64,000 bases of DNA, from assembly GCF_011045215.1 (NCBI RefSeq), contig NZ_CP049201.1; one strand, written 5' to 3'. Positions within the stretch are counted from its first letter, which is position 1; each line of letters opens with the position of its first letter. This stretch comes from Escherichia coli. Lineage in GTDB: Bacteria > Pseudomonadota > Gammaproteobacteria > Enterobacterales > Enterobacteriaceae. The notes beneath the pieces were generated by a model, which worked only from the letters and a program-made list of their open reading frames with translations, was not told the origin of the DNA and did not search any database. Below are positions 41,901 to 55,335 of this stretch, piece after piece. The translations under genes and the position numbers were made by a program.

Positions 41901-43214
41901 ATGAAAAATATAAAATTCAGCCTGGCCTGGCAGATTCTGTTTGCTATGGTGCTGGGCATTCTCCTGGGAAGCTACCTGCACTACCATAGCGACAGCCGCG
42001 ACTGGCTGGTCGTCAATTTGCTCTCTCCGGCGGGTGATATCTTCATCCATCTGATCAAAATGATTGTTGTGCCGATTGTGATCTCCACGCTGGTGGTGGG
42101 TATCGCGGGTGTTGGTGATGCCAAACAGCTCGGGCGTATTGGCGCGAAAACCATTATCTACTTCGAGGTGATCACCACCGTCGCCATCATTTTGGGGATC
42201 ACTCTGGCGAACGTCTTCCAGCCCGGTGCCGGGGTGGATATGTCGCAGCTGGCGACCGTCGATATCTCGAAATATCAGAGCACTACGGAAGCGGTACAAA
42301 GCAGTTCCCACGGCATTATGGGCACGATTTTGTCGCTGGTGCCGACGAACATTGTGGCGTCGATGGCGAAAGGCGAAATGCTGCCGATCATCTTCTTCTC
42401 GGTGCTGTTTGGTCTGGGGCTTTCCTCCCTGCCCGCGACGCATCGTGAACCGCTGGTGACCGTGTTCCGCTCCATCTCTGAAACCATGTTTAAAGTGACT
42501 CACATGGTGATGCGTTATGCGCCGGTGGGTGTGTTTGCGCTGATTGCGGTGACGGTGGCTAACTTTGGTTTCTCTTCTCTGTGGCCACTGGCGAAACTGG
42601 TGCTGCTGGTGCATTTCGCCATTCTGTTCTTCGCGCTGGTAGTGCTGGGAATTGTGGCGCGCCTGTGCGGGTTAAGCGTCTGGATCCTGATTCGTATTCT
42701 GAAAGATGAGCTGATTCTGGCGTACTCCACTGCCAGCTCTGAAAGCGTACTGCCGCGAATTATTGAGAAGATGGAAGCCTACGGAGCACCGGCGTCGATC
42801 ACCAGCTTCGTGGTGCCGACCGGTTACTCTTTTAACCTTGATGGTTCGACGCTGTATCAAAGTATTGCCGCTATTTTCATCGCTCAGCTGTATGGCATTG
42901 ACCTGTCCATCTGGCAGGAAATCATTCTGGTGCTGACGCTGATGGTGACCTCGAAAGGGATTGCTGGCGTGCCGGGCGTGTCGTTTGTGGTGTTGCTGGC
43001 AACGCTGGGTAGCGTAGGTATTCCGCTGGAAGGTCTGGCGTTTATTGCTGGTGTTGACCGTATCCTCGACATGGCGCGTACTGCGCTGAACGTGGTGGGT
43101 AATGCGCTGGCGGTGCTGGTGATTGCCAAGTGGGAACACAAATTTGACCGCAAAAAGGCGCTGGCTTATGAGCGTGAAGTGCTGGGCAAATTTGATAAAA
43201 CTGCGGATCAATAA
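41901..43214 (+). CDS. gltP: glutamate/aspartate:proton symporter
   Basis: 437-aa ORF of the dicarboxylate/amino acid:cation symporter family. Confidence 0.95.
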   Translation: MKNIKFSLAWQILFAMVLGILLGSYLHYHSDSRDWLVVNLLSPAGDIFIHLIKMIVVPIVISTLVVGIAGVGDAKQLGRIGAKTIIYFEVITTVAIILGITLANVFQPGAGVDMSQLATVDISKYQSTTEAVQSSSHGIMGTILSLVPTNIVASMAKGEMLPIIFFSVLFGLGLSSLPATHREPLVTVFRSISETMFKVTHMVMRYAPVGVFALIAVTVANFGFSSLWPLAKLVLLVHFAILFFALVVLGIVARLCGLSVWILIRILKDELILAYSTASSESVLPRIIEKMEAYGAPASITSFVVPTGYSFNLDGSTLYQSIAAIFIAQLYGIDLSIWQEIILVLTLMVTSKGIAGVPGVSFVVLLATLGSVGIPLEGLAFIAGVDRILDMARTALNVVGNALAVLVIAKWEHKFDRKKALAYEREVLGKFDKTADQ

Positions 43215-43254
43215 TTGAAGATTGCCGGGGATATCCACCCGGCAATGTGTGAAT

Positions 43255-43404
43255 GCCTGATGCGACGCTGGTGCGTCTTATCAGGCCTACGTCAGACAGC
43301 GCAATAGCCTGATTTAGCGTGATTTTGTAGGTCGGATAAGGCGTTTACGCCGCATCCGACATCAACGCCTGCTGCGACGCTTAACGCGTCTTATCAGGCC
43401 TATC
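43255..43404. repeat. REP/BIME cluster between gltP and yjcO
   Basis: at least four REP-like palindromic units in alternating orientation. Confidence 0.7.
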
Positions 43405-44094
43405 TTAACCGTTGGTTAATTTTTCAAACTCTTCACACCCGGTATCAAACCCTTCCATACAGCTCAGGTTCAACCAGTGCAGCGCCTTTTGCTTGTTCTT
43501 CTCGATAAAACCTTCTTCACCGTTTAAGAACATCATTCCCGCCCAGTACTCGGAATAACCGGTTCGGGAAATTGCAGAGCTGCGTTTGAAATACCAGGTT
43601 GCCTTGTCATCGTCGGCCTTAATGCCCACGCCGTTGGCGTAAATCAAACCAAGCAGCATTTGGGCATCGACGGCAGAGTCGTTCTCCAGATCTTCCGAGG
43701 CGTTTTCTAACAGCGAAATCGCCTTTGGATAATCCGGTTTGCCCGCTTGAGTATTTACCAGAATATGCGCCAGCGTTACTTCACCTTCTTTACTGCCCGC
43801 TTGCGCCGCTTTCTCTGCAAGAACTTTTGCTTGTGGATAGTCCAGACTGACCGGATTGGTGATTTTGATCTGCGCCAACAGCGCGCAGGCATCAGCATCA
43901 CCGCTGTCGGCGGCTTTCTGTGCCCAATATTCGGCTTTGCTCAAATCGCCGGAGCTAAACCAGCTGTCGGCAAGAAAATATTGTGCGCGTCGGTCCCCGG
44001 CCTCTGCTGCCTTTAAATACTGGCTGCCAGGCTCGGAGTCGTTGGCGTGGGCAAAGAATGTCAAAAACAACATCAATGCGATAATTTTTTTCAT
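43405..44094 (-). CDS. yjcO: Sel1-repeat protein (secreted)
   Basis: 229-aa ORF with signal peptide and Sel1/TPR-like repeats. Confidence 0.88.
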   Translation of the reverse strand: MKKIIALMLFLTFFAHANDSEPGSQYLKAAEAGDRRAQYFLADSWFSSGDLSKAEYWAQKAADSGDADACALLAQIKITNPVSLDYPQAKVLAEKAAQAGSKEGEVTLAHILVNTQAGKPDYPKAISLLENASEDLENDSAVDAQMLLGLIYANGVGIKADDDKATWYFKRSSAISRTGYSEYWAGMMFLNGEEGFIEKNKQKALHWLNLSCMEGFDTGCEEFEKLTNG

Positions 44095-44146
44095 TTTGAT
44101 AATACGATTGGGTAGGGAGTAACCAGTATAAAGAGTTCGAATGGAT

Positions 44147-44173
44147 AAAAAAACAGCCTCCGAAAGGAGGCTG
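44147..44173 (-). terminator. rho-independent terminator of fdhF
   Basis: hairpin cagcctccgaaaggaggctg followed on the minus strand by 7 T. Confidence 0.7.
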
Positions 44174-44187
44174 TAGAAAGGACTGTA

Positions 44188-46335
44188 TTACGCCAGTGCC
44201 GCTTCGCGCAGGCGAGTTTTCAACTTGTTGTACTCGTCAATCACGTACTGCTCGGCGGCACGCTGATCGGCGATCGGCTCGACGCGCACGGCGCAGTATT
44301 TGTATTCCGGCGTTTTCGTAATCGGGCTTAAGTTTTCGGTAACCAGCTCGTTACAGGCACCAATCCACCACTGGTAGGTCATGTAAATCGCCCCTTTGTT
44401 CGGACGATCGCTGACCTGCGCACGGGTGATAATTTTGCCTTTACGCGAGTGCACCCAAACCAATGCCTCATCTTCAATACCCAGACGTTTGGCGTCTTCG
44501 GTATTGATTTGTGCGTAGCCAGGTTCATCAGCCAGCGCCGCCAGTGCCGCACAGTTACCGGTCATCGAACGGCAAGAGTAGTGACCAACTTCACGCACCG
44601 TTGACAGTACCATCGGGTACTCGTCGGTGAGTTTGTCGATTGGCGCTACCCAGTCGCAGGTGAAGAACTGCGCCAGACCGTTCGGGGTATCAAACTTCTC
44701 TTTAAACAGATAAGAAGTCCCCTGATCGGCATCTGAAGTATCGCGGCAAGGCCACTGAATGAAGCCCAGTTCGCCCATTTTCTCGTAAGTCGCACCGTAG
44801 AAATCCGGGCACAGATGACGCAACTCATCCCAGATCTCCTGGGTGTTGTTGTAGTGCATCGGATAACCCATACGGGTGGCGATTTCACTGATGATTTGCC
44901 AGTCCGTTTTCAGATCCCATTTCGGTTCAACCGCCTTGAAGAAACGCTGGAAGCCACGGTCAGCCGCAGTAAACACGCCTTCATGCTCGCCCCACGACGT
45001 TGACGGTAAAATAACATCCGCCGCCGACGCGGTTTTGGTCATAAAGATGTCCTGAACGATGACCAGTTCCAGATCTTCAAAGGCTTTACGTACTGCCGAC
45101 AGCTCCGCGTCAGTTTGTAGCGGATCTTCGCCCATAATGTACGCGGCACGCACTTCGCCATGCGCTGCGCGGTGCGGCAGCTCGCTGATGCGATAACCGG
45201 TATGAGCAGGCAGGCTTTCCACGCCCCAGGCTTTGGCGAATTTCTCGCGGTTAGCCGGATCTTTCACGTACTGGTATCCCGGATACGTATCCGGCAGCGC
45301 GCCCATATCGCAGGCACCCTGCACGTTGTTCTGACCACGAACCGGGTTTACACCCGCATGCGGCTTACCGAGGTTACCGGTCAGCATCGCGAGGCTGGTC
45401 AGAGAACGCACGGTTTCCACGCCCTGGTAGAACTGGGTTACACCCATGCCCCACAGGATGGCGGCGCTTTTCGCCTGGGCATACATCCGTGCCGCCTGAC
45501 GAATCTCACTGGCGCTGACGCCGGTGATATCTTCAACCGACTCCGGCGTGTAGCCTTCAACGATTTTACGATACTCTTCAAAGCCTTCTGTACGGGAAGC
45601 GACGAACGCTTTGTCGTACAGATTTTCTTCAATAATGACATGGCCCATCGCATTCAACAGCGCGATGTTCGAGCCGTTTTTCAGTGCAATGTGCATGTCA
45701 GCAATGCGCGCGGTTTCAATTTTGCGCGGATCGCAGACGATAATTTTCGCCCCGTTACGTTTAGCGTTAATTACGTGATTCGCCACGATTGGGTGGGAAT
45801 CCGCCGGGTTGTACCCGAAAACGAACACTAAATCGGTATTATCAATTTCGTTAATAGCATTGCTCATTGCGCCATTACCGACCGATTGGTGCAGACCTGC
45901 AACCGATGGGCCGTGTCAGACACGAGCGCAGCAGTCAACGTTATTGGTACCAATAACGGCGCGCGCAAATTTTTGCATTACATAGTTGGTTTCGTTACCC
46001 GTACCACGCGAGGAGCCGGTCGTCTGGATGGCATCCGGACCGTACTTCTCTTTGATGGCGCTCAGGCGCTCGGCAACGTAATTCAGTGCCTCATCCCAGG
46101 AAACAGGTTCGAGTTTGCCGCCACGCTGGCGACGGATCATGGGGGTTTTCAGGCGCGGGGTCAGGATCTGGGTATCGTTAATGAAATCCCAGCCATAATA
46201 ACCCTTCAGACACAGGGTACCCTGGTTGGTTTTCCCCTGCGCTGCCTCCGCCCGGACGATTTTGCCGTTATCGACGACCAGGTTGATTTTGCAACCTGAT
46301 GCGCAATAGGGGCAAACCGTGACGACTTTTTTCAT
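44188..46335 (-). CDS. fdhF: formate dehydrogenase H (selenocysteine-containing, molybdopterin)
   Basis: Two track ORFs (45916..46335 and 44188..45867) are one 715-codon frame interrupted only by an in-frame TGA at 45916-45918; flanking translation ...DCCARV-U-HGPSVAG... matches the FdhF Sec140 context. Confidence 0.95.
45870..45915 (-). other. SECIS stem-loop directing Sec insertion at the fdhF UGA
   Basis: the ~40 nt immediately 3' of the UGA on the mRNA (CACGGCCCATCGGTTGCAGGTCTGCACCAATCGGTCGG) is where bacterial SECIS elements lie. Confidence 0.75.
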
Positions 46336-46384
46336 CGGTCTCGCTCCAGTTAATCAAATCACGCATACGCGCTCTCGACTACAG

Positions 46385-46403
46385 TATGCATCTTTTATGC
46401 CAC
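46385..46403 (-). promoter_or_regulatory. sigma54 (-24/-12) promoter of fdhF
   Basis: minus-strand TGGCATAAAAGATGCAT (GG-N10-GC) ~50 bp upstream of fdhF ATG. Confidence 0.6.
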
Positions 46404-46532
46404 ATTTTATTTGGGGTCATTCCCTGATATTACGGGCACTATTTATTCAAAACTCTGACGAAAAACAGGCTGTCGTCAGTTTTGACGTGACGAAACGAAA
46501 TACCGCGTGACAGCCATCACGCGGCAGACATT

Positions 46533-47999
46533 TTATTTTTTCTCGACGACGGGAGCCGCCTGATACCCGCCGCCCAGCGATTTCATCAACTGAATGCTTT
46601 GGATCACCCGGCGGCTGTCCAGCATCAGTAATGACATCTCTTCGGCAAGTACTGGCAACCGGGCTTCAGTGGCCTGTAAGCGGCTGGTTAAGCCGCGCTG
46701 ATAGGCGGCCTCGGCAGCGCGCTGGGTGAAGCGCGTTGCTTCCACGCGTTCAGCCTGCATCTCTCGCTCGTCGTTGAGCGTTTGCAGACGCGTGCCGTTG
46801 ACGGCAACGTCGCGCACCGCGTTCAGTACTGACTGGTTGTAACGTTCAATCATCATGTTGCTGGCGGCGCGAGTGCCTTCGAGATTGGCATTCAACCGTC
46901 CACCGTCAAACAGCGGCAATTTCAGACCCGGGATGAAGTTGAACTGGCGACTGGTTTTTTTGAATAAGGTATCCAGGTGGATGGCATCAAGGCCGAAAAA
47001 CGCTTTGATATCAAAGCTCGGGTAGAACAACGCCCGCGCGGAATCCACCTGATCTAATGACGCCTGAACATACCAGCGCATGGCTTGCAGATCCGGGCGT
47101 CTGGCGAGCAACTCATAAGAGAGCGTCGCCGGAATGCCGGTCTGTACTTGCGGTAATGCCACCGGTTTGATCTCCGGCATATCGCTGGCTCCCGCGCCAA
47201 TCAATGCACGCAGAGATTCTCGCGTTTCGGTGATTTGCCCTTTAACGGCAGCAATTTGTTTATCGACCGCCAGAATCTGTGCCCGCGCGCCGTGGAAAGG
47301 CACTTGCGCTTCCAGACCGTGCGCCACTTTACTTTGGTGCGCTTTCACCGCGTAATCAATCACATCGCGAGTTTGTTCTAACAGATCGAGCATCTGATAG
47401 CTGGCCTGCATACTGTAATAAAGCTGCGCTACGCCCGTGGTCAGCGATAGCTCTACTGCTGCGGTTTCTGCCAGCGCGGCATTATGCGCGCCAATGGCGG
47501 CGGCAACCGCTGAGCGATGCACACCCCACAAATCAAGATCCAGTCCGGCAAACAAACCTACTGTGGCTTCCGTATAGTACGGCCCGTCCATACCCAGTGC
47601 TGGCGCATCCATCGCATAAGGGCTTAAAAAGCCGTTCGCCGAGACGCGTTGGCGGTTGAGCATCCCTAACGCTGCGACCTGTAATTGTGAACCGGCATCT
47701 AACAAATCGGCCTGGGACTGCGCTTTTTCTTCCCGCAGTTTCGCTTCGGCGATGGTGTGTGAACCACTTAGCGTCCGTTGGATCAGCGCATCCAGCTGCG
47801 GGTCATTGAGTTGTTTCCACCACTGCGCCTGCGGCCAGCCGGAGCTGGCAAGATGAATATCATCGGCCAGTTTGATTTGTTCCGGTTTGAGCTGTTGATG
47901 AGGCGCAGAATCCTTGCGTACCAGGGCACAGCCGGAAATCAGCGTCGTGCTGCCGAGAATGCTGCACAACAGCAGACGTGAAAGTTGACGATTGATCAT
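46533..47999 (-). CDS. mdtP: outer membrane factor lipoprotein of an efflux pump
   Basis: 488-aa ORF with lipoprotein signal (LISGC) and OMF-family features. Confidence 0.93.
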   Translation of the reverse strand: MINRQLSRLLLCSILGSTTLISGCALVRKDSAPHQQLKPEQIKLADDIHLASSGWPQAQWWKQLNDPQLDALIQRTLSGSHTIAEAKLREEKAQSQADLLDAGSQLQVAALGMLNRQRVSANGFLSPYAMDAPALGMDGPYYTEATVGLFAGLDLDLWGVHRSAVAAAIGAHNAALAETAAVELSLTTGVAQLYYSMQASYQMLDLLEQTRDVIDYAVKAHQSKVAHGLEAQVPFHGARAQILAVDKQIAAVKGQITETRESLRALIGAGASDMPEIKPVALPQVQTGIPATLSYELLARRPDLQAMRWYVQASLDQVDSARALFYPSFDIKAFFGLDAIHLDTLFKKTSRQFNFIPGLKLPLFDGGRLNANLEGTRAASNMMIERYNQSVLNAVRDVAVNGTRLQTLNDEREMQAERVEATRFTQRAAEAAYQRGLTSRLQATEARLPVLAEEMSLLMLDSRRVIQSIQLMKSLGGGYQAAPVVEKK

Positions 48000-51580: not shown

Positions 51581-53566
51581 TTAATTTGGGGTTACGATAT
51601 TCACCCACAAATCGAAATTATCCAGACAGGCAATAATTTCTTCCAGTTTCGCACCATTGCCAATAATTTTGGCTTTCTTCGCTTTTACCAGATCCGCCAT
51701 TTTGGCTTGTCCGGTCAGCACGGCGTGCAGATCTTCACGACTGATGTAGAAAGAGGCGTCAGCTTGGGATTGCAGAGTTTTACGGTAGTTAAGCACGCTA
51801 TCGTTCAGCGTCAGGTTGAGGTTATCGCCGTTGCTCATATTGAAGTTCAGGCTGATATTTTTACCCGCGGCTTTCGCGCTATCGAGGCGAACGGCCATAA
51901 AGTCGAACAGCATTTCGACCGACATTCCGCGAATGGTGTCCGGGGAACCGGTGGTGCCGTGGCTGAACTTATGCACCCCTTCGCGCAGCTCTTTCGCGCC
52001 GGTCAGGTAGAAACCGCGCCATGTGGCGGACTCGGCCTGATAGCCCAGCTGTTCAAAGTTATTCGCTTGCAGATTCTTCGCGACCTGGTCACCCGGGTTG
52101 GCGGCAATCACCTGTTTCAGCAGTTCTGCCGACCAGCGGTAATCACCTTGCTTGTTCGCTTCTTGCGCCAGGTTGATGACACGGGCAGAACCGCCCAGCG
52201 CTTTCACGTAACGTTTGCCCATCTCTACCTGACCATACGGATGCAGGTTAGCCGGGTTACCGTCGTAATAGCCAAGATAGAAGTTATACACCGCGCGGGC
52301 GTTGTGGCTGACAGAACCGTAATAGCCACGGCTGGCCCAGTTATTGGCAAGTGCAGGCGGCAGCTTAATCATGTCGCCGATTTCATTCATGGTGTAGCCC
52401 TGGTTCGCCAGGTGCAGGGTCTGGTCGTGAATGTACTTGATAGTATCGCGATATTTACCAATATAATCATTGATATGCTTATTGCCCCAGACCGGCCAGG
52501 TATGCGGCATAAACAGTACTTCCGCGTCGTTACCCCACATATCCAGCGTTTCGTTCAGGTACTCGGTCCACTTGCTGGTATCGCGGGTTTTCGCGCCGCG
52601 CAGAGTGTAGAAGTTGTGCAGGGTATGCGTGGCGTTCTCGGCGGTACACAGGGCTTTCAGGGCCGGAATATAGAAGTGCATTTCGGCTGGTGCTTCGCTA
52701 CCTGGGGTCATCAGGAAGTCAAACTCCAGGCCGTCGATAATCATCTTCTCGCCAGTTCTGACGATAGTTTTAGTCGGTGCAATAATGCTCGGGTCGCCCG
52801 TTGCCAGCGTCACGCCAAGGCCATTACCCACGTTGCCTTGCGCGTTGTGTGGCAGTAACAGACCGTAAGAGTAGAGCGCACGGCGGCTCATGATGTTACC
52901 CGCCAGCACGTTTTCGCTGATGGCTTCGTCCATAAAGCCAGCAGGGGCAATCACCTGAACTTTGCCGGATTTAACATCGGCTTCAGAGATAATACCTTTC
53001 ACGCCACCATAGTGGTCAGTGTGGCTGTGAGTGTAAATAACGGCAACAATCGGTTTTTGCGGACGATGCTGGAAGTAAAGGTCAAGTGCGGCTTTTGCGG
53101 CAGGTGGCGTCACCAGTGGGTCAATAACAATAATGCCTTTCTCGCCCTCAACGAACGTAATGTTAGAGATATCCTGGCCGCGCACCTGATACATTTTATC
53201 GGTGACTTTGAACAGGCCAGAAATTCCGTTGATCTGCGACTGACGCCACAGGCTGGGGTTTACGGTTTCCGGCGCTGCGGCATTAATATCAAATTTGTAA
53301 TCGTCCGCGCGGTAGTAAACTTTACCGTTCGCATCACGCAGAATACCTTCATCCAGCAGCGGGGCGATAAATCCACGCTGGGCATCGTCAAAATCCTGAC
53401 GATCGCTAAACGGTAATGATTTGGCGTAATTCTGATTAACCTGTTGGGTATATTGAGTGGCGGCTTTCGCTTCCTCTCTCGCGTTAGCGGTATTTACCAT
53501 CATGCCGCTGGCGGCAGTTAACGCAATAACAATCCTGCTCAAACGGAATAACCGAGAGTTATTCAT
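51581..53566 (-). CDS. yjcS: putative alkyl/aryl-sulfatase (metallo-beta-lactamase fold)
   Basis: 661-aa ORF from MNNSRLF with signal peptide and HxHxDH motif ([10 protein letters not shown]). Confidence 0.92.
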
Positions 53567-53818
53567 ATAAATCTCCATTTATCATTTATGTCGTAAATAT
53601 GTAATCCATGCAAAATACGTCATTTAAAGCTGGCGTTATCATAATTGGGAAATTGCGACTTTAATAAGTGGAAGTGTGAGCAGAACGATCCATTTTATTA
53701 GGCATTTGTGCTGAAGAGGGAAAAGTACGCGAATTTATTATCCCTGTAAATAATATGAGGTGTTTTATATATTTATTATATATATTGTACTTCGGCAAAT
53801 ACTGAGCACAATTAATCA

Positions 53819-54136
53819 ATGCAACCGGTGTTTTTTATTAAAAAACGTACCGGAGCAATGGGCGGTCATGTCGCTGGCACCGCAGGATTCTGTGTTGCTG
53901 TGCCAGCCTTTTATTCATGGTCAATGAGTGAGGGGATTGATAAAGAAACCAGGTCGTCAGAGCGCACTGATTATCCGCATTACGCCAGTGAAGTTGCACT
54001 GGCTTTTGGTTCACGAGTGGTTGGCCTCGAACTGGCAAAAATGATTGTGGATGCGTGGCTGGGCGCACAGTACGAAGGCGGTCGTCATCAACAACGCGTG
54101 GAGGCGATTACGGCAATAGAGCAGCGGAGAAATTGA
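53819..54136 (+). pseudogene. rpiB-like remnant (ribose-5-phosphate isomerase B family) lacking the catalytic core
   Basis: 105-aa ORF with weak translation signals; retains ...SSERTDYPHYAS... and C-terminal ...AFGSRVVGLELAKMIVDAWLGAQYEGGRHQQRVEAITAIEQRRN (RHxxR motif) but has no GxLICGTGxG active-site loop; sits immediately upstream of yjdP where K-12 has rpiB. Confidence 0.5.
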
Positions 54137-54204
54137 GATTCATCCACTACTTGCATGGATGAGTAATGACTAATGTGGATAGAGTTTCTTTTTGAGGTTG
54201 GCTA

Positions 54205-54534
54205 ATGAAACGCTTTCCGCTATTTCTTTTATTCACCCTGCTCACGCTGTCCACCGTTCCGGCCCAGGCCGATATTATCGACGACACCATTGGCAATATT
54301 CAGCAGGCGATTAACGACGCTTATAACCCTGACCGTGGGCGAGACTATGAAGATTCGCGCGACGACGGCTGGCAGCGTGAAGTGAGCGACGATCGGCGCA
54401 GACAATATGACGACCGCCGCCGCCAGTTTGAAGATCGTCGCAGGCAACTGGACGATCGCCAGCGCCAGCTTGATCAGGAGCGTCGGCAGCTGGAGGATGA
54501 AGAGCGGAGAATGGAAGATGAGTATGGGCGATGA
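54205..54534 (+). CDS. yjdP: small secreted low-complexity protein
   Basis: 109-aa ORF with signal peptide (cleavage after AQA) and Arg/Asp/Gln/Glu-rich periodic DDRRRQ-like repeats. Confidence 0.85.
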   Translation: MKRFPLFLLFTLLTLSTVPAQADIIDDTIGNIQQAINDAYNPDRGRDYEDSRDDGWQREVSDDRRRQYDDRRRQFEDRRRQLDDRQRQLDQERRQLEDEERRMEDEYGR

Positions 54535-54576
54535 GGTAGGCTCGGGTGAGGGGGCCAGCGCGCACATTCCCTCTCA

Positions 54577-55335
54577 TCACGCCACCCCAATCTCCATCCC
54601 ATCAAACCCCGCCTCAAACCCCGACGGCAGCGCGTTCTCCATCAGCCATGCATCAAACTGGTGGCTGATGTGCGTCAGAATCACGCGTGGCGAGCGGATA
54701 ACCTCATTCAGCGCCAGTACGGTGTTTAAATCACAGTGGTTACGTGGCGCATCTTCGCGCGGCGGGTGGCTGCAATCAATCACCATAACCTGCGGCTGAT
54801 TATTGCGTAAAAATTTCAGCGTTTTTTCCGGCAGGCCTGCGGTGTCAGACAGCCACGCCGCGCGGCTGTGCGCCGTTTCCAGCAGATAACCGAAGGTCAG
54901 TTTTGAGTGGTTGAGCGGCAGGGGCGTGACCTGTAACCCCTGCAAATCAAACACCACAAACGGTTCCACCGTGTGGCTGAAATCAAGCAGGCCCGGATGT
55001 TTAAACAGATCGTCGCAGCCCTGTTCATCCGGCGGGCCGTAGACCGGGATCGGATCGCCCACGCCCCAGCGCAGCGGAAACAGCCCCTGGACGTGATCCA
55101 TATGGTAGTGCGTCAGCAAAAACTGCTGGAACGATCCTGGCGACCAGCGATCGGCGAGATCGTGCCGCCCGGCGTCGATCAGGGTGATCGCCTCGTTAAA
55201 CTTCACTACGCCGCTGCATGGCTGGCGGCGATACTGCGGTGAGCGCCGCGCTCTGGCGCAGGCCGCGCACTCGCAGCCCCATGCCGGAACGCCCTGTGCG
55301 CCGCCGGTGCCGGTGAGCGTGAGGGACAGGCTCAT
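54577..55335 (-). CDS. phnP: phosphoribosyl 1,2-cyclic phosphate phosphodiesterase (metallo-beta-lactamase fold)
   Basis: 252-aa ORF with HxHxDH motif (THYHMDH); last gene of the phn operon. Confidence 0.93.

Follow-up and report, generated by a model that had tools for sequence, protein, structure and literature searches.

Does an in-frame TGA that cuts a minus-strand gene of Escherichia coli into two open reading frames (ORFs) mark a broken gene, or a codon that is translated into an amino acid? The gene lies in a 64,000-nucleotide stretch of the E. coli contig NZ_CP049201.1 (assembly GCF_011045215.1), hereafter the window. A six-frame ORF list of window positions 43000–47500 contained two minus-strand ORFs. 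The upstream ORF (45916–46335) comprises 139 amino acids and ends in ...NNVDCCARV followed by TGA; the downstream one (44188–45867) comprises 559 amino acids when counted from its first ATG. Both belong to one frame. Translated as a single frame, positions 44188–46335 of the minus strand yield 716 codons including the stop, with two in-frame stop codons in total: the TGA at codon 140 (45918–45916) and the terminal TAA at codon 716. The 48 nt (16 codons) that separate the TGA from the ATG of the second ORF are open in the same frame, and the local translation around codon 140 reads CCARV-*-HGPSVAGLHQSVGNGAMSNAINE. A preliminary description of this DNA had proposed that the two adjacent ORFs share one frame and are split solely by the TGA at 45916–45918, and that the flanking residues, CCARV-U-HGPSVAG, belong to a selenocysteine-containing formate dehydrogenase H (FdhH) encoded by fdhF. 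Straight-through translation bears out the single frame, and the flanking residues are indeed read as CCARV-*-HGPSVAG. The observation is real and was rightly interpreted. It was also already known, and nothing in the feature is new: fdhF was the founding bacterial case of a selenocysteine encoded by UGA, and its biology has been settled for decades.

The strongest evidence on the identity of the gene comes from its full-length product. Protein searches were run with cysteine in place of residue 140. Over residues 1–715, the product was 100% identical to the chain common to the PDB entries 1AA6, 1FDI, 1FDO, 2IV2 and 7Z0T, which is formate dehydrogenase H, and this chain carries an X (a non-standard residue, selenocysteine) exactly at position 140, matching the UGA codon. 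Alignment to a characterised FdhF had been suggested as a check of the FdhH assignment, which thus holds along the entire chain. Because the product is identical to the FdhH of PDB 1AA6 over all 715 residues, the gene is free of frameshifts and other lesions; a further frameshift was one of the two findings that the preliminary description had named as speaking against its reading. The NCBIfam equivalog model TIGR01591 (formate dehydrogenase subunit alpha) scored 1095.7 bits (cutoff 666.25), aligning in one unbroken stretch from residue 6 to residue 685 (profile positions 1–672 of 672). Three Pfam domains were detected: Fe4S4 (PF04879, residues 1–54), Molybdopterin (PF00384, residues 61–487), which runs across the UGA position, and Molydop_binding (PF01568, residues 576–682). 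Cys8, Cys11, Cys15, Cys42, His141 and Arg333 are all present in the product. With the FdhH crystal structure in mind, we take the four cysteines to be those of the [4Fe-4S] cluster, and Sec140–His141 together with Arg333 to form the active site. By sequence identity, the gene is E. coli fdhF and encodes FdhH, the selenopolypeptide of formate hydrogenlyase; oxidation of formate as part of this complex would be expected from the identity to the characterised enzyme, including that of PDB 7Z0T.

E. coli has related proteins in FdnG and FdoG, the alpha subunits of FDH-N and FDH-O, which are likewise molybdopterin formate dehydrogenase alpha subunits and whose genes, too, have an in-frame UGA accompanied by a SECIS element. 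The FDH-N alpha model TIGR01553 gave 249 bits on the fdhF product (cutoff 814), and the product is of the cytoplasmic 715-amino-acid FdhH type. Some RefSeq records name fdhF 'N subunit alpha', which is a naming error.

Decoding of UGA as selenocysteine would call for a SECIS hairpin in the mRNA, and the preliminary description had located one directly 3' of the codon. There, the Rfam family SECIS_2 (RF01988) matched 45923–45869 of the minus strand with 87.1 bits (gathering score 70, E 8.5e-19). The alignment was full-length (model positions 1–55 of 55), and no difference from the family was detected in the fdhF hairpin. The scan covered positions 43800–46800; repeated over the whole window at gathering thresholds, it returned the same SECIS_2 match. 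The related model SECIS_3 (RF01989) matched the segment weakly (35.8 bits vs a gathering score of 63). Minimum free energy (MFE) structures of segments of 17, 40, 52 and 55 nt share one hairpin, which agrees with the helices of the SECIS_2 model. Its upper stem-loop, GGUUGCAGGUCUGCACC, begins 11 nt past the UGA and occupies positions +15 to +31 (U of UGA = +1). The bulged U lies at 45902/45901 (+17/+18) and the apical loop GGUC at 45897–45894, with G23 at 45896 and U24 at 45895. The bulged U (U17) and the loop nucleotides G23/U24 are presumably those contacted by SelB. In location, bulged U and loop G23/U24, the hairpin fits the geometry published for the fdhF SECIS, namely a length of 17 nt, a start 11 nt past the UGA, a U17 bulge and G23/U24 in the loop (PMC8659212, citing Liu et al. 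1998).

The folding of this segment, proposed as a check on the hairpin, was informative only in part. The expected hairpin is the MFE structure, but the test is weak, with 25–27 of 200 dinucleotide shuffles folding equally well or better (z −1.19 to −1.29) and z-scores across the 17-, 40-, 52- and 55-nt segments ranging from −0.67 to −1.29. Extra stability of the hairpin for its composition was not found in the comparison with 200 shuffles, and such stability is not a defining feature of SECIS_2. Because the stability is not significantly above that of dinucleotide shuffles, thermodynamics alone would not identify the hairpin. Folding energy was dropped as a discriminating SECIS test in favour of the Rfam covariance model; it is the covariance-model match and the sequence identity that carry weight.

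The sequence upstream of the gene was compared with the regulatory region mapped in K-12. The preliminary description had placed a sigma-54-type promoter at 46385–46403, where GTGGCATAAAAGATGCATA reads from 46403 to 46385 on the minus strand. This segment contains the exact 17-mer GTGGCATAAAAGATGCA bound by sigma-54 in K-12 ChIP-seq, letter for letter the OS41 motif of MG1655, with correctly spaced −24 (GG) and −12 (GC) elements (TGGCAT-N5-ATGCA, 46402–46387). OS41, upstream of MG1655 fdhF, was reported with a fold-above-threshold of 41, as 'experimentally confirmed in EcoCyc', and with a transcription start predicted 19 bp downstream of the centre of the motif, at a distance of 41 bp to the gene start (PMC4591121). 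The motif centre here (46395) gives a predicted start at ~46376 and a 41-nt leader to the ATG at 46335. An RpoN-holoenzyme gSELEX peak has also been described in the fdhF–mdtP spacer (PMC8743547). From the mdtP stop codon past the SECIS, a single SNP, at 46411, separates the window from MG1655. The predicted sigma-54 promoter is thus supported by identity to a mapped K-12 site, with the experimental evidence transferred from K-12. A consensus scan for sigma-54 promoters (TGGCAC-N5-TTGCA, at most two mismatches) gave 20 matches in the window vs 27.2 expected; it was uninformative as evidence, and exact identity to the ChIP-seq motif was used instead.

Under anaerobiosis, the enhancer-binding protein FhlA activates the sigma-54 promoter of fdhF in response to formate. 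FhlA binding upstream of fdhF and dependence on FhlA and formate are stated in PMC11291172. The candidate FhlA region of the window is identical to MG1655. It contains an inverted repeat (CTGACGA/TCGTCAG at 46455–46461 and 46473–46479) and a direct repeat of TGACGAAA (46456–46463 and 46488–46495). Within it, CGTCAAAACTGACG (46474–46487) deviates by 3 mismatches from the FhlA consensus given in PMC7658346, a consensus that is non-specific at this tolerance, with 110 matches in the window. The consensus scan was set aside as a means of pinpointing the site, and the region was kept as a candidate. Past the 3' end of the gene, the predicted terminator is strong, with a 9-pair stem containing 6 GC pairs followed by TTTTTTAT. 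The features of the locus are compiled in Table 1.

Table 1. Coordinates of the fdhF locus in the window, with the observation on which each feature rests.
Feature	Position	Strand	Basis and remarks
fdhF coding sequence	44188..46335	-	715 codons + TAA; straight-through translation, PDB identity, TIGR01591, Pfam, RefSeq
UGA codon 140, predicted to be decoded as selenocysteine	45916..45918	-	Aligns to X140 of the PDB FdhH chain; next base C (UGAC)
SECIS element, full Rfam-defined hairpin	45869..45923	-	Starts 5 nt before the UGA; codons 139-156
Minimal SelB-binding upper stem-loop (predicted), GGUUGCAGGUCUGCACC	45888..45904	-	17 nt; fold (((.(((....))))))
Shine-Dalgarno sequence (putative), GGAG	46344..46347	-	8 nt upstream of the ATG; read from the sequence
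Sigma-54 (-24/-12) promoter (predicted), GTGGCATAAAAGATGCA	46387..46403	-	Same 17-mer as ChIP-seq site OS41
Candidate FhlA upstream activating region	46455..46500	-	~80-125 bp upstream of the predicted start; putative
Intrinsic terminator (predicted), ACAGCCTCC-TTTC-GGAGGCTGT then T7	44153..44174	-	Terminator scan; 14 nt past the stop codon

Recoding would further depend on the selenocysteine machinery. The window contains 0 tRNA genes and hence no selC, and selA, selB and selD also lie outside it. We used the MG1655 loci as queries against 5426 complete E. coli genomes: selC (tRNA-Sec) was matched in 5424/5426, and selB-selA and selD in 5425/5426 each. Given this frequency in the population, the source strain very likely has selABCD.

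Taken as a whole, the locus is almost certainly E. coli fdhF, transcribed from a sigma-54 promoter and carrying a UGA at codon 140 that is recoded as selenocysteine via SECIS and SelB. Transcription would start ~41 nt upstream of the ATG, under the control by FhlA and formate known from the literature. The UGA would not be read as a stop, the mRNA directly 3' of it being predicted to form a bacterial SECIS hairpin. As described in the literature, SelB with GTP and Sec-tRNA(Sec) would bind the apical stem-loop through the bulged U and G23/U24, and, competing with RF2, bring selenocysteine to the ribosomal A site. Sec140 would then become a ligand of the molybdenum centre, with the catalytic role that the literature assigns to it, in a molybdopterin/[4Fe-4S] selenoenzyme expected to be the subunit of formate hydrogenlyase that oxidises formate. 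In vivo, SelB-mediated recoding of an fdhF fragment comprising UGA140 and the SECIS (codons 130–179) was 30–40%, and both the dependence on SelB and controls without SECIS are described (PMC4513850).

Three other readings of the TGA were weighed against this one. A nonsense mutation that truncates fdhF after 139 residues and leaves the downstream 575 codons silent would explain the split of the gene by a plain ORF finder, and the majority of ribosomes terminate at the fdhF UGA even in the wild type (PMC4513850). However, the 55-mer comprising the UGA and the hairpin is 100% identical in 5411 of the 5420 complete E. coli records; because of this identity, the TGA-split frame is not a chance event. 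The 575 codons beyond it run on without a stop or frameshift and match the crystallised full-length enzyme with 100% identity, the SECIS model match exceeds its gathering score, and the RefSeq coding sequence is intact. We regard a pseudogene as extremely unlikely, and as refuted by the conservation together with the identity to a solved full-length selenoprotein. The few deviations from the conserved 55-mer include a rare variant in strain 14EC007 with two changes, both synonymous: one converts a U-G to a C-G pair at the base of the helix, the second sits within the unpaired UAAU.

The ATG at the start of the second ORF (45867) would also be consistent with two separate genes, one for a 139-amino-acid Fe-S protein and one for a 559-amino-acid molybdopterin protein translated from this internal start. 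Yet the Pfam Molybdopterin domain crosses the UGA, the TIGR01591 alignment passes over it without a break, and the solved structures consist of one 715-residue chain. Nor was a Shine-Dalgarno-like motif seen just upstream of the ATG at 45867, in the 3' flank of the SECIS. The probability of two genes is accordingly close to nil. Equally improbable is a decoding of the UGA by a standard near-cognate tRNA (Trp or Cys), or a Cys-type enzyme, in either case with no selenium involved. E. coli is known to read through UGA at a low level independently of Sec, and Cys-containing formate dehydrogenases were among the PDB homologues found. Against this, the codon is TGA and not TGC or TGT, the hairpin that follows it has every published SelB determinant in place, practically every E. 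coli genome carries the sel genes, and the controls without SECIS are available for comparison (PMC4513850). Recoding of UGA140 as selenocysteine in an intact fdhF is the reading retained.

Beyond this recoding, the UGA and SECIS might have a second, regulatory role, in that ribosomes stalled at UGA140 under low selenium would uncouple transcription from translation and thereby set the level of fdhF mRNA, or the SNP at 46411 might alter promoter strength; we consider either very unlikely. A study on Treponema primitia reports such an uncoupling by stalling at the UGA for an fdhF of that species (PMC3892789). Nothing unusual in the sequence of the window points to an additional role of the UGA and SECIS or to an effect of the SNP (A here, C in MG1655), located 8 nt ahead of the −24 element.

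Compared with K-12, the locus is an ordinary fdhF. The protein is identical to K-12 FdhH (fdhF, b4079) over 715 residues, and its gene shares with K-12 the exact sequence of SECIS, 5' leader and sigma-54 promoter. Across the 5' 536 nt of the coding sequence (45800–46335), MG1655 fdhF differs by one synonymous change (GAT vs GAC). The gene context yjcO-fdhF-mdtP is that of K-12. The wider window differs from K-12 in that the als/rpiR region is absent here, whereas the fdhF feature itself shows no difference. Of the 5426 complete E. coli genomes, 5419 contain the 2.5-kb fdhF segment with an identity of ≥95%; to that of strain TB06052 it is 100% identical.

The value of the observation is practical and concerns annotation. 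The preliminary description had expected naive annotation to call fdhF a pseudogene. This holds for plain ORF finders, which do split the gene, but not for RefSeq/PGAP, which gives a single intact fdhF coding sequence between yjcO and mdtP in both TB06052 and K-12 MG1655 (b4079). Since plain ORF callers cut selenoprotein genes in two at the UGA, a scan ought to spot an in-frame TGA followed by a SECIS hairpin and merge the two halves. The enzyme has been crystallised, its hairpin forms a curated Rfam family, and the current RefSeq annotation of the gene is correct. fdhF can serve as a positive control in the recognition of recoded genes.

Across the entire regulatory region of fdhF, the gene for formate dehydrogenase H (FDH-H), the window differs from K-12 by a single SNP (A at 46411, C in strain MG1655), which, relative to the gene's sigma-54 promoter, sits 8 nt upstream of the -24 element. 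Beside this promoter, the window carries what is, judged by its match to a mapped motif, a second known sigma-54 promoter, of the pspG type. The matched motif, OS40 (TTGGCATGATTCTTGTA), was identified by sigma-54 ChIP-seq upstream of pspG in K-12 (PMC4591121).

A sequence search found fdhF to be absent altogether from 7 of 5426 complete E. coli genomes, and 4 of the 5420 matching records were labelled as plasmids. Product naming varies among RefSeq annotations: NZ_CP038300.1 and NZ_AP041112.1 list fdhF as 'formate dehydrogenase N subunit alpha, selenocysteine-containing', a name inconsistent with an FDH-H product.

Features located in the window
Feature	Position	Strand	Remark
pspG-type sigma-54 promoter	10175-10190	+	TGGCATGATTCTTGTA, matches OS40
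sraL (RF01408), Hfq-binding sRNA	25347-25487	-	Rfam, 153.3 bits (gathering score 39)
549-aa ORF	27400-29049	+	
430-aa ORF	29203-30495	-	position and length correspond to espX5 of TB06052
549-aa ORF	30672-32321	-	
naRNA4 (RF02564)	32724-32795	+	Rfam
naRNA4 (RF02564)	43330-43400	+	Rfam; between gltP and yjcO
yjcS	51581-53578	-	
yjcS-phnP gap	53579-54576		~1 kb
phnP	54577-55335	-	
naRNA4 (RF02564)	63474-63554	+	Rfam

Rfam matches included the small RNA sraL, in a region assigned to soxR/soxS-ghxP by synteny with the RefSeq-annotated E. coli strain TB06052, and three naRNA4 elements (69-77 bits, gathering score 59.5), which are REP-type repeats. The middle naRNA4 match lies immediately downstream of the fdhF neighbourhood. 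In TB06052, espX5, annotated as a type III secretion system (T3SS) effector pentapeptide repeat protein, is situated between yjcE and actP, and the 430-aa ORF flanked by two 549-aa ORFs corresponds to it in position and length.

The region between yjcS and phnP differs in content. K-12 carries the als operon and rpiR here, whereas the corresponding gap in the window spans only ~1 kb, and both are therefore absent; the junction instead contains an rpiB-family remnant and yjdP. Of the 5426 complete E. coli genomes, 1568 have this junction in contiguous form, the best of them matching at only 98.5% identity. TB06052, whose fdhF is 100% identical, has a different island here, which serves sugar utilisation and includes a hybrid sensor kinase; it is not the strain from which the window comes. 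The yjcS-phnP spot is a variable insertion hotspot.
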